Source: a virus. Taken from it: a DNA stretch of 38,226 nt. The DNA lies in the UHGV virus genome UHGV-0868109; one strand, written 5' to 3'. Positions 1-30,011 of the stretch are shown piece by piece (within the stretch, counting starts at the first letter, position 1; each line of letters starts with the position of its first letter). The position numbers were made by a program, and so were the translations under genes. The notes under the pieces were generated by a model, which saw only the letters and a list, made by a program, of their open reading frames with translations, did not search any database and had not been told where the DNA came from.

Positions 1-209
1 TCTCCGCTTACCCATGCATCTCCGTATACCCGTGCATCTCCGCTTACCCATGCATTTCCGTATACCCGTGCATTTTCGCTTACCCGTGCATTTCCGTATA
101 CCCGTGCATTTCCGTATACCCGTGCATTTCCATATACCTGTGCATCTCCGTATACCTGTGCATTTCCGCACACCCGTGCATTTCCGTATACCCATGCATT
201 TCCGCTTTG
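1..209. repeat. Tandem 18-bp repeat (consensus CCCGTGCATTTCCGTATA), at least 11 copies, continuing past the window start
   Basis: Direct reading: units at 12-29, 30-47 and so on to 192-209 with minor variants. Both strands are open across the array (plus-strand ORF 14..214 gives HFRIPV repeats, minus strand gives YGNARV repeats). Confidence 0.9.
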
Positions 210-363: not shown

Positions 364-525
364 TTATATCTGCCCAAAAGCTACACAGCAGACCATCAGG
401 GCAATCGAAAAACCAATCACGAACCAAAAGGCTTTCTCAACGACCTTATCATATGTATCCGGCTGTCTTACCGGTCCTTTTGTCTGCTTTCTCTTCCTGA
501 TCTGAATTACCTTTAACTGCTCCAC
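364..525 (-). CDS. Small membrane protein (53 aa, GTG start)
   Basis: GTG at 525 preceded by AAAGGAGGTGAGAGAC. Product ...KAFWFVIGFSIALMVCCVAFGQI has one hydrophobic helix. It is below the ORF-track length cutoff. Confidence 0.4.
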   Translation of the reverse strand: MEQLKVIQIRKRKQTKGPVRQPDTYDKVVEKAFWFVIGFSIALMVCCVAFGQI

Positions 526-3696: not shown

Positions 3697-3855
3697 TACT
3701 GGAAGAAACACACGCCAATGTGCTTCTTTTGGTAACTCCGAAGAGATACACTAATGCCAATGAATATTGTATCATCTTCGGAGCAGTCACGCAAGAGAAC
3801 AACCGTTCTGTGCTGGCTGTTATTTTTATACTCAAAAACAGAAAGGAAGATGATT

Positions 3856-4950
3856 ATGTGGGTAGAAGAAAGAAAAACCGGATTCAAATTTGTTGAACGC
3901 TACACCGACCCAATGACAGGAAAGACCAGGAGGGTTTCTGTTGTAATGGAGAAAAATACGGCACAGTCGAGAAAGCTGGCTGCCGTTGCACTGTCTGAAA
4001 AGATTGACAAGGCACTGCTGCCACAGGTGGACAAGATCCGCTTGAAAGACCTGGTGGATCTATACAGAAAAGAACAGTTCCGAACGCTTAAGCAGTCAAC
4101 CTATCGCAGAAACAGTGCTGTGTGCAATACGCTAATGAAGATACTGGATCCTGAAATCTATGTTGACAAGCTCACCGCAGGTTACATCCGTGAGCGATTT
4201 CTCAATACTGGTCGGGAACACAGTACATTAAACGAATGGATGATTCGTCTAAAAGCTTTGCTTCGTTGGGGATATCGCAATGACTATATTAAAGACATAT
4301 CCTATCTCAACAAAATAGAAAGATTCAGCGATATTCCGCACCGCCAAAAGATTGAGGATAAGTTTCTTGAATCTGCCGAACTGAAAGAATTGCTCTCCGG
4401 CATGACAATTCTAAAATGGAAACTCCTTACCGAGTTCCTTGCACTATCCGGGTTGCGATTCGGTGAAGCCGCCGCTCTCACGAAGTCTGACGTTGACTTG
4501 AAAAACAGGAAAATCCACGTGACTAAAACCTACGACAGTGTGGCTGATATTACTACAACGCCCAAAACAGCCTGTTCCGTACGTGACGTATATATTCAGG
4601 ATGAATTGCTTACGGTTTGCAGAAACGTGCTTCTAGGCTGTCACAGCGGCACTGTAGTTTCAATCAGTAGCGTATTCTTTCCCGGTACAATCCGGGAGCA
4701 TATTGAATTTGATTGTTATGCAAAATATCTAAGGGAAACATCTCAGAGAGTTATTGGACGCAGGATCACGCCTCATACACTCAGGCACACTCACGCAAGT
4801 TTGCTGATGGAACAGGGAATTGATATTGATAGCATATCCAAAAGACTCGGACATAATGACAGCAGGATTACTAGAGAGATCTATCTGCACGTAACAAAGA
4901 AACTTGAAGAACAGAGAAATGCACAGATCAAAGAATTAAAAATTTTATAG
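3856..4950 (+). CDS. int: Tyrosine recombinase (phage integrase)
   Basis: N-terminal MWVEERKTGFKFVERYTDPMTGK. C-terminal HTLRHTHASLL...LGHNDSRITREIYLHV (R, HxxR and Y catalytic motifs). AGGAAG SD before the ATG at 3856. The listed ORF extends upstream to 3754. Confidence 0.9.
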   Translation: MWVEERKTGFKFVERYTDPMTGKTRRVSVVMEKNTAQSRKLAAVALSEKIDKALLPQVDKIRLKDLVDLYRKEQFRTLKQSTYRRNSAVCNTLMKILDPEIYVDKLTAGYIRERFLNTGREHSTLNEWMIRLKALLRWGYRNDYIKDISYLNKIERFSDIPHRQKIEDKFLESAELKELLSGMTILKWKLLTEFLALSGLRFGEAAALTKSDVDLKNRKIHVTKTYDSVADITTTPKTACSVRDVYIQDELLTVCRNVLLGCHSGTVVSISSVFFPGTIREHIEFDCYAKYLRETSQRVIGRRITPHTLRHTHASLLMEQGIDIDSISKRLGHNDSRITREIYLHVTKKLEEQRNAQIKELKIL

Positions 4951-5215
4951 TTTGCCCCCTTTATGCCCCCTTTTGACAATAAAAAATCTCTGAACCCCTT
5001 GCAAACACTGGATTTACAGGAGATTCAGAGATTCAGTCTAATGCCGCAGACCGGCTACCCTATATATATAAATAGGTATAAACACTGTAAGAATATTTGA
5101 TTTTCACAAATTTCTCACACATTTCAATGCAAGCAAATATAATAACTTGCCCCCTATTTGCCCCCGCTTGAGATGATACGATATTCAGCCCCGGAGTTAC
5201 TGCTCCGGGGTAATC
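4951..5215. other. Predicted attP region: two paired TGCCCCC direct-repeat sites flanking an AT-rich segment with a 9-bp inverted repeat
   Basis: TGCCCCC at 4953 and 4964, and again at 5148 and 5159, each pair 11 bp apart. ATCTCTGAA (4986-4994) and TTCAGAGAT (5024-5032). Lies immediately 3' of int. Confidence 0.35.
5189..5210. terminator. Stem-loop CCCCGGAG-ttactg-CTCCGGGG between convergent int and accessory transcription units
   Basis: Perfect 8-bp GC-rich stem. Weak T-richness follows on the plus strand. Confidence 0.35.
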
Positions 5216-6719: not shown

Positions 6720-7328
6720 TCAGAACAACTGGAATCTGTCAATTTTCTTTCCGAAGCTACCAGCGTAACCATCCTGTCCACCGCCAGTCTCGTTGTTGTA
6801 CTGCCAGGAGTAATATCCTTTATTGACCGGTGAAACTCTGTACTGTGCTTTCTGACTGCTGCCATCCGGTGCAAGATATATCACCTCGATTGCATCAATC
6901 GGCTTACCGTTTCCGGCATATCCATTTACCGGATCAGCCCAGTTGAACCCGGTCACATATGGCAGCCACTTTCCACCCAGTACATGAACACGGTATTCGA
7001 CTTTTCCCACGTTACACATGATTGCAACGTCTGTGATCGCCTTTCCCCTGACTCCTGCATAATCGGCAAGATTCTTCACGGATGGATACGTCTTTCCGTC
7101 AGCTTTCACGCAGTAGGTGAATACTACTGCCGCATTATAGTGTCCTCCTGATGGTTTGGCAGTCTCTTTCGGACCAGAAGCTGTTCCCTGTCCGTAATCA
7201 ATATCACAGAGCTTCAGAAGATGCGTGAATCCATTCTGTGACAGATTGGCGATCCGCACACCGTAAGCTGATCCATCAGCAGCAATGTACTGATCATTTC
7301 CGAGATAGATTCCAATATGCCCATTCAT
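6720..7328 (-). CDS. Endolysin C-terminal portion (rest of the NlpC/P60 fold beginning HIGIYLGNDQ, plus a putative cell-wall-binding domain). In frame with the upstream ORF across a TGA
   Basis: Same frame as 7338..7631 (7631-7328=303). Starts MNGHIGIYLG, repeating the AHIG that ends the upstream ORF. Confidence 0.6.
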   Translation of the reverse strand: MNGHIGIYLGNDQYIAADGSAYGVRIANLSQNGFTHLLKLCDIDYGQGTASGPKETAKPSGGHYNAAVVFTYCVKADGKTYPSVKNLADYAGVRGKAITDVAIMCNVGKVEYRVHVLGGKWLPYVTGFNWADPVNGYAGNGKPIDAIEVIYLAPDGSSQKAQYRVSPVNKGYYSWQYNNETGGGQDGYAGSFGKKIDRFQLF

Positions 7329-7337
7329 CCATACTGC

Positions 7338-7631
7338 TCAACCGATATGCGCATCAGATCTTTTGCTGATCGGGATCACCTCAACCGCTGTACTCTTATA
7401 CTGTCCTGATCCCCGGACAATGCCGGTATACCAGCTAATCAGACCGGAACAGTCTACGCATACCCTTCCAGCTTTCTTATCATCTGATTCCCATACACAA
7501 TTAGATCCATACATTTTCCGGAGTGCCTGGATCTTTGCCAGACTCATCACTGTACCCTTTGCCCCATATACATAGGGTGTTCCGATCTTACTTTTTGCAA
7601 ATGCGATTAATCCTGCTGCTGTCTTACTCAT
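7338..7631 (-). CDS. Endolysin N-terminal portion, NlpC/P60 peptidase with the catalytic Cys (DCSGLISW); ends at an in-frame TGA
   Basis: GGAAGGGAG SD. NlpC/P60 Cys motif. Stop TGA at 7338-7340. Confidence 0.7.
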   Translation of the reverse strand: MSKTAAGLIAFAKSKIGTPYVYGAKGTVMSLAKIQALRKMYGSNCVWESDDKKAGRVCVDCSGLISWYTGIVRGSGQYKSTAVEVIPISKRSDAHIG

Positions 7632-7661
7632 ATTTTTCTCCCTTCCTGCACCGGTGCAAAC

Positions 7662-7985
7662 TTAGTTCTTCTTATATTTATTGCGATTCCACATTTCCGT
7701 GACACGTTCCCAACCGCCAGTGCTTACCAGATAGACAATAAATGCGGCAATAAATGATGCGAAAATGTAATACCACTCAATTACTACTGTATAATATGTG
7801 CATAGTACGATCACTGACACGGGTGTCAAGATCAGTGCTGTAGCCAGTGCGACTGCATTGGTCTGTACTTTTTTAAGTCCGGGCATTTCCTTAATAACCT
7901 GCACAATCACGCTGACCATGAAAGCCAGTACCCCGATTCCTGCCAATATGTAACTCATATACTGCATTAATATTTCAATGTTCAT
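7662..7985 (-). CDS. Holin (2-3 transmembrane segments, charged C-terminus)
   Basis: Hydrophobic segments AGIGVLAFMVSVIVQVI and LATALILTPVSVIVLCTYY, C-terminal RNKYKKN. AAAGGAG SD. Confidence 0.75.
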   Translation of the reverse strand: MNIEILMQYMSYILAGIGVLAFMVSVIVQVIKEMPGLKKVQTNAVALATALILTPVSVIVLCTYYTVVIEWYYIFASFIAAFIVYLVSTGGWERVTEMWNRNKYKKN

Positions 7986-7997
7986 AGTTAGTCTCCT

Positions 7998-8309
7998 TTA
8001 TTTCAATCCAAATTTCATTGCCGCTGCACCAAGAACAAGACCGAGGGCAGTTGTAAGAACGTATTTTACAGCTGTTCTCCACATATCTCCATCTCGACTT
8101 TCTAATGTTTCCAAGCGTTTCCCTTGCTGCTTCTGCTCGCTTACCATAAGTTCTATACTCTGTGCGAGCTTTTCGACTGACACTGTAAGCGAATTAATCT
8201 GCTGCGTAATCTTTTCCAATACTTCAATCCGCTTGTTCTGACGATGATTTTCGTCCTCGATCCGCTTCTTGAACTCTTCATGTTCTGCCCTTGTAATTAC
8301 GTCATCCAT
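7998..8309 (-). CDS. xhlA: XhlA-like haemolysin/lysis-associated protein (coiled coil plus C-terminal TM)
   Basis: ATG at 8309 with AAAGGAGGTGA SD. Coiled-coil region then a TALGLVLGAAAMKFGLK TM anchor. Confidence 0.65.
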   Translation of the reverse strand: MDDVITRAEHEEFKKRIEDENHRQNKRIEVLEKITQQINSLTVSVEKLAQSIELMVSEQKQQGKRLETLESRDGDMWRTAVKYVLTTALGLVLGAAAMKFGLK

Positions 8310-8342
8310 CTTTCTCACCTCCTTTTGCATTTAAAGTCAAAA

Positions 8343-29453: not shown

Positions 29454-29729
29454 TTAGTCAATTGCAACGTCATACCATGTTCGCACCCACCTTGCCACAT
29501 TAAGCCTAAATTCGTCATCTTCCAGCAGCTTTTTAACATGGTTATAACAATCAATCGGTCTATGCACAATATAATCATAATTTGATGTTGGAATGGTCTC
29601 TCCTTCTGTGAATACAGGGATGCTCATTCTATAAAATCTCTTTCTCCTGTCTTTTTCGTCATATTGTTCATATACCAAAACACCGTTTCGCAAACAGTAT
29701 TCAGATATGTTTTTCTTTGTCATTTTCAT
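29454..29729 (-). CDS. Hypothetical protein (91 aa)
   Basis: GAGGTGA SD. ORF in a tight array. Confidence 0.5.
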   Translation of the reverse strand: MKMTKKNISEYCLRNGVLVYEQYDEKDRRKRFYRMSIPVFTEGETIPTSNYDYIVHRPIDCYNHVKKLLEDDEFRLNVARWVRTWYDVAID

Positions 29730-29735
29730 TCTTAT

Positions 29736-30011
29736 TCACCTCGTATCTGCCTCGCATTGCTTAGCACCGGATTTCACAATCTCAATACATTTACATATTC
29801 TTTGGTATTCATTAATGCCATGTGCTGGTGTTCCGTCAATCAGTTCCATGTCTTTGAAATCTTCCAACATATCAACAACCTTGTCCACGTCATAGGCTGT
29901 TGGCTGTTCTTTTAGCATATCTTCAATATCGGGAATACAAAACTCGTAGCCTCTCCCTAGATACTTTGCAATTTCACCACTCGTAATCTTGTCAGCATCA
30001 ATTAATCTCAT
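29736..30011 (-). CDS. Hypothetical protein, MRLIDAD-family paralog 1
   Basis: Shares the N-terminal MRLIDAD and the TAYDVDKVV..LE motif with 30452..30820. Confidence 0.5.
   Translation of the reverse strand: MRLIDADKITSGEIAKYLGRGYEFCIPDIEDMLKEQPTAYDVDKVVDMLEDFKDMELIDGTPAHGINEYQRICKCIEIVKSGAKQCEADTR

Follow-up and report, generated by a model that had tools for sequence, protein, structure and literature searches.

Hydrolases of the NlpC/P60 family (PF00877, MEROPS C40), such as RipA and RipB of M. tuberculosis and CwlO of B. subtilis, are peptidoglycan endopeptidases with a catalytic cysteine and, after it, a catalytic histidine in conserved motifs. Single-base premature stops in genomes that are otherwise intact are familiar from amber and opal mutants of lysis genes and from decaying prophage genes. 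When the stop is UGA, translation can leak through it, as in E. coli, in B. subtilis and in the A1 read-through protein of Q-beta, with Trp as the expected residue. In wild-type E. coli reporters, UGA is read by Trp-tRNA(Trp), with RF2 as its competitor, at about 2-4% (PMC10570021), and read-through of UGA in B. subtilis has been reported to be strongest with A after the stop and weakest with U (PMC5289835). In stop-recoded phages and in code-4 organisms, TGA stands for Trp.

We have analysed a stretch of 38,226 nt, the UHGV virus genome UHGV-0868109 (hereafter the window), in which two ORFs on the minus strand are separated by a TGA. We conclude that these ORFs are one NlpC/P60 endolysin gene, which carries a premature opal codon in place of Trp98, and not two genes. 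The endolysin belongs to a known family, and the lesion is an opal nonsense mutation of the ordinary kind. On the one hand, the DCSG motif at the catalytic Cys and the H-x-x-x-Y-L-G-N-x-Q motif at the catalytic His of the product align with RipA and RipB. On the other hand, the product differs from these enzymes in belonging to a phage lysis cassette and in having another C-terminal domain, for which there is no Pfam family, and it differs from RipA in having Ala at the third catalytic position, while the window gene is in addition cut by a nonsense codon. In its single-base premature stop, the locus resembles nonsense mutants of lysis genes and decaying prophage genes. However, unlike laboratory nonsense mutants and degraded prophages, it comes from a complete circular genome in natural faecal virus-particle DNA. 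The positions of the features are collected in Table 1.

Table 1. Features of the interrupted endolysin gene and of the adjoining lysis genes in the window.
Feature	Position	Strand	Description
Endolysin gene	6720..7631	-	Catalytic NlpC/P60 domain at the N-terminus (approximately residues 1-145), beta-rich domain at the C-terminus (approximately residues 160-303); interrupted at codon 98
Upstream ORF, including stop	7338..7631	-	97-aa N-terminal fragment with Cys61
Downstream ORF	6720..7328	-	202 aa from the native Met102; holds His105 and the C-terminal domain
Premature TGA, codon 98	7340..7338	-	Trp (TGG) in relatives; altered base 7338
"Quasi-duplication"	7311..7352	-	Two (A/G)HIG-coding 12-mers; native strand-turn-strand AHIGWAVWMNGHIG
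Putative holin	7662..7985	-	107 aa, small, hydrophobic, directly upstream of the endolysin gene; full-length match to phrog_18218 (function not annotated)
XhlA-like "hemolysin" lysis-cassette protein	7998..8330	-	phrog_937, E = 6.7e-19; 103 aa from 8309 in related loci

The ORF translation gives an endolysin gene that runs from 7631 to 6720 on the minus strand, with 303 codons and its own TGA terminator (6722..6720). Over the junction the translation reads ...KRSDAHIG*AVWMNGHIGIYLGNDQ, and the same frame is open on both sides of the single TGA, in agreement with an earlier note, made from the sequence without database searches, which had described two ORFs in one frame split by an in-frame TGA. 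A strong ribosome-binding site, GGAAGGGAG, lies 6 nt before the ATG at 7631 that starts the 97-aa ORF. The internal ATG of Met102 sits in the same frame 9 nt past the stop and has no Shine-Dalgarno sequence upstream, whereas the neighbouring genes show GGAGG-like sites.

The read-through product matched Pfam NLPC_P60 with 29.2 bits over residues 19-136, above the gathering threshold of this family (23 bits), and the intact orthologue P0001 matched it with 27.6 bits over profile positions 3-97. When the two pieces were taken separately, the 97-aa N-terminal fragment gave no Pfam match, and the 202-aa C-terminal fragment reached 18.3 bits against NLPC_P60, under the cutoff. The catalytic Cys61 (codon 7451..7449, minus strand) belongs to the motif DCSGLISW, and VDCSGLI aligns with DCSGLV of RipB (PDB 3pbi). 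The catalytic His105 (codon 7319..7317, minus strand) belongs to the motif HIGIYLG, and GHIGIYLGNDQ aligns with QHVTLYLGNGQ of RipB. Both residues are invariant among the aligned orthologues, and in the window the stop falls between them. The alignments and the Pfam score thus agree with the earlier note both in the family assignment and in the placing of the Cys motif upstream, and of the His motif and C-terminal domain downstream, of the stop. From its sequence, the gene product is an NlpC/P60-type phage endolysin, predicted to be a peptidoglycan endopeptidase.

The native spacing between Cys and His is 44. In RipA and MepS it is usually about 49-51, which is consistent with the RipB/RipA alignment obtained here. 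In the same alignment, Ala117 (codon 7281..7283) occupies the slot of the third catalytic residue, the Glu of "LEASGS" in RipB; in the family this residue is polar (His, Glu, Asp, Asn or Gln) and follows the His at a distance of about 12 residues. Two residues past it, Asp119 (codon 7275..7277) is invariant and may replace the third catalytic residue. The AlphaFold model, built with 26 close sequences only, had a pLDDT below 50 in residues 1-165, a level too low for placing Trp98 or the third catalytic residue.

The C-terminal domain (about residues 160-303; window 6720..7150) was modelled by AlphaFold with a pLDDT of about 90 and is beta-rich. It showed no Pfam family at E up to 10 and no significant match to the PDB in Foldseek. 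It matches the C-terminal parts of the PHROG endolysin families 3393 and 22474, and further lysins of gut siphoviruses, one of them annotated as a lysozyme, carry it at their C-terminal ends (BFVD, E 1e-4 to 8e-16). This domain is probably an undescribed modular module with a putative role in wall binding.

The endolysin gene follows the genes of an XhlA-like protein (phrog_937) and of the putative holin (phrog_18218), and the cassette that it closes is the last part of a siphovirus late operon. This operon also encodes the large and small terminase subunits, an SPP1-type portal, a capsid protein and a scaffold, together with a 1,380-aa tape measure, Dit and minor tail proteins. In adjoining holin-type genes and in having a modular architecture of catalytic and C-terminal domains, the endolysin has the features of a lysis-cassette enzyme. 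Position and sequence suggest the holin role of the 107-aa protein. Among the proteins scanned, which included part of the small ORFs, no second peptidoglycan hydrolase domain was found. The three lysis-cassette genes (6720..8330, minus strand) all lie in one reading frame, with TAA stops and short spacers between them, and this shared frame is probably a coincidence.

An integrated prophage copy of the same region was found in another locus, L001. Its match to the window ends at window position 5038, at ...GGCATTAG, which represents the attachment-site junction (L001 4621 onward). Past this junction, L001 continues into host genes (an Ogt-type methyltransferase, MatE and a fab/fatty-acid synthesis cluster), and the window continues into an integrase gene (3754..4950). 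In addition, the window corresponds to an ENA contig in rotated form, and both ends of the window lie inside a tandem repeat. Considering the rotation, the ends that join in the repeat and the integrase in place of host genes, the window is the excised or packaged circular form, and the circular genome of a temperate siphovirus is the best explanation. The tandem repeat at window 9..204 has a period of 18 nt with 10.9 copies and 85% matches, and the observation also covers L009 (12890..12990). Compared with the window, the ENA contig from this sample contains an additional 36-nt unit, and the repeat copy number is uncertain.

The sample of the window is SRR4295175, a human faecal virome. According to citing papers, SRR4295172-175 belong to Manrique et al. 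2016, "Healthy human gut phageome", and a review describes the Manrique viromes as four, made without amplification (PMC5656937). A close orthologue of the endolysin, with 96% identity, is the NCBI-named NlpC/P60 protein of [Ruminococcus] lactaris, which points to a Lachnospiraceae gut host.

The nature of the lesion becomes clear from the comparison with relatives. With the joined sequence as query, 2,440 protein matches were obtained, and the best of these, about 60, were all exactly 303 aa, which is the read-through length. In orthologue alignments of 24 and 26 sequences (99%-74% identity) there is no gap near the junction, and Trp98 is invariant, HIGWAVWMNGHIGIYLG. Its context in orthologues is HIGWAVWMNGHIGIY and is conserved down to 57% identity. 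None of the aligned orthologues, which are 303-311 aa long, has a gap at residues 95-105. The GTDB representative genomes yielded only two distant orthologues, from Roseburia porci (75% identity) and Sporofaciens musculi (57% identity); both keep GWAVWM-GHIG, and they are informative on conservation but not on the host. Among INPHARED phage records, we found only a 330-nt partial match and no annotated counterpart. The earlier note had itself named orthologous endolysins as a check, and this comparison found no relative with two ORFs; all have Trp98 without a gap.

At the nucleotide level, the sole difference between the window and L001 in 4,621 nt is position 7338, and the same position is the sole difference from a further locus, L007, in 2,754 nt. 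This base is A on the coding strand (T on the plus strand) in the window and G in all eight intact-allele loci, and P0001 equals the product of the window except at Trp98. The lesion is a point substitution of TGG (Trp) to TGA, that is, a G-to-A transition on the coding strand. A recent nonsense mutation is the best reading of these data.

The TGA allele is private to one sample. In a census of codon 98, TGG was found at 42 of 44 loci, and the two TGA loci both come from the sample of the window. This census used a degenerate 38-nt pattern over the codon, independent of gene calling, which added 11 IMG/VR and 21 metagenome loci, all with TGG. When the 97-aa and the 202-aa product were looked up as exact sequences, they were present only on ENA ERZ505311 NODE_39 (38,389 nt, metaSPAdes, about 17x according to the record name) and on the Logan contig of SRR4295175, and each of these contigs matches the window at 100% identity. 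Probably, one set of reads underlies all of the TGA assemblies. A candidate for a second TGA allele on another background, the 97-aa protein P0123, which ends in AHIG, was rejected. In its contig of 516 nt (L011, ena:ERZ27310070:k141_127327), the sequence ...GGC TG runs into the Illumina adapter AGATCGGAAG (495..516), and this adapter read-through at the contig end creates a false TGA. Adapter artefacts can therefore pass for truncated proteins in large protein collections from metagenomes. Two further loci carry independent 1-nt frameshifts in the same endolysin, namely L012 at about 2100 (equivalent to window 7369) and L015 (3001..3899, coverage 2.9x). These represent either sporadic prophage decay or low-coverage errors and indicate that sporadic lesions or errors do occur in the endolysin gene.

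Several other explanations of the interruption have to be weighed against a genuine nonsense allele. The earlier note had proposed that a 30-nt insertion by duplication broke the gene and that its removal would restore a canonical enzyme. The near-repeat on which this proposal was based does exist, as the 12-mers GCGCATATCGGT (7352..7341) and GGGCATATTGGA (7322..7311) are identical at 9 of 12 positions and lie 30 nt apart, and this similarity is the only point in favour of a duplication. However, it is at chance level, because the window holds 63 pairs of 12-mers with at least 9/12 identity at offset 30, and 2,255 over offsets 12-60. Every intact orthologue, at 303 aa or longer, keeps the 30 nt, and a single base is the only lesion. 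HIGWAVWMNGH pairs with LIFYGPGGGQH of RipB, the strand and turn ahead of the catalytic His, and accordingly the 30 nt encode a native core element; the upstream "HIG" of the supposed repeat varies in distant orthologues (YIG, MRG). When the 30 nt are deleted, the match to NLPC_P60 worsens from the 27.6 bits of the native protein to 24.0 bits over profile positions 63-97 only, the strand aligned with "LIFYG" of RipB is lost, and the Cys-His spacing would shrink from 44 to 34. The duplication is refuted as the cause. The broader options of the earlier note, a pseudogene, a sequencing error or read-through, are all still live. Among these, a read or consensus artefact comes next in likelihood after a genuine nonsense allele but is improbable; the sample population would then really have TGG, and the assemblers would have taken up an erroneous A at 7338 or one from a minority variant. 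The confinement of the allele to one sample, assemblies that plausibly share reads, and the adapter read-through of P0123, which shows that such artefacts occur in these collections, would fit an artefact. Against it, the same base is found in the ENA metaSPAdes contig, in the Logan contig and in the window, which is rotated and has one 36-nt repeat copy fewer; furthermore, the contigs are long and hold the site in their interior, away from any adapter, and the library was unamplified.

Another explanation is that the stop is maintained, with UGA read as Trp through a code-4-like reassignment, a suppressor tRNA or programmed read-through, by which the amount of endolysin would be lowered or its production delayed. 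The stop replaces Trp, exactly the residue that UGA misreading inserts, so that codon and expected residue are the same as in the leaky UGA of E. coli, B. subtilis and Q-beta, and the otherwise intact circle came from a virus-particle preparation. On the other hand, no terminator is used more often in the window than TGA, which closes 26 of 57 crude ORFs (several with ATGA stop/start overlaps), and the endolysin itself ends with TGA after the conserved ...DRFQLF terminus. A scan of same-frame ORF pairs in the window revealed no other interrupted gene; its one further coding-strand candidate, at 29736 (29454..30011, minus strand; two 91-aa ORFs with TGA and two codons between them), was rejected as a split gene and represents two genuine genes, the upstream ORF matching phrog_20593 end to end. 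No tRNA, including a suppressor, was detected in the window by ARAGORN, and no Rfam element, including SECIS or a stimulatory RNA, was matched. The flanks of the stop are identical to those of the TGG alleles, which indicates that no read-through signal has evolved. The base after the premature stop is G, and the most leaky context reported is A (PMC5289835). Unlike natural UGA read-through systems, the endolysin stop is not conserved, with TGG in all 42 loci from other samples, and shows neither evidence of selection nor a special context. The locus shares an in-frame TGA at a Trp position with stop-recoded phages and code-4 organisms, but it has only one such TGA, uses TGA as its top terminator, lacks a suppressor tRNA and has relatives with TGG. 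TGA recoding is excluded, and a stop that is maintained in any of these ways is very unlikely. It is also highly improbable that the 97-aa Cys fragment and the 202-aa His and binding fragment are both made, by termination-reinitiation, and assemble into an active hydrolase. An in-frame ATG lies close behind the stop, and termination-reinitiation across such distances is known in bacteria. However, this ATG has no Shine-Dalgarno sequence, residues 98-101 (WAVW), an invariant core strand, are missing from both pieces, and the two-ORF arrangement occurs in no relative.

We consider it probable, accordingly, that the window carries a genuine nonsense allele, TGG to TGA, with a null or strongly weakened endolysin, since termination at this codon gives a fragment that has the Cys but lacks the His and the C-terminal domain. 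At codon 98, the TGA would stop translation after 97 residues and thereby cut Cys61 from His105 and the C-terminal domain, and the 97-aa product would presumably be inactive. The downstream ORF is not a separate gene and could be reached only by read-through or termination-reinitiation. If any activity is left, its only plausible source would be that Trp-tRNA(Trp), against RF2, misreads the UGA at a low level, as happens in bacterial translation in general. Since this position originally coded for Trp, such misreading would restore the exact wild-type enzyme of 303 aa, at a small fraction of the normal yield; the junction peptide of the read-through product is SDAHIGWAVWMNGHIGIYLGNDQYIAADGSAYGVR. 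A complete circle from virus particles is unexpected for a strictly lysis-null phage, and therefore the allele may retain more function than a null allele would. However, recovery from virus particles fits residual release and fits equally well complementation by wild-type genomes, host autolysins, other or helper phages, or sample handling. That the UGA-for-Trp allele is alive, with misreading yielding a few percent of endolysin, enough for delayed lysis and virion release, appears unlikely.

In summary, our analysis is mainly a correction, in that the annotation of the locus should be a single endolysin gene that contains a premature opal codon, and neither two genes nor a gene disrupted by a duplication. 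For users of phage catalogues, it is a warning that a lysis gene of this "complete, circular" virome genome is probably defective. If the reads confirm the nonsense allele, its presence in an endolysin gene from virus particles raises the question of how the phage leaves its host. If the allele is leaky, this would explain the complete circular genome in an unamplified faecal virus-particle preparation, and the allele would be a natural case of a "self-healing" nonsense mutation by which a gut phage tunes the timing of its lysis.
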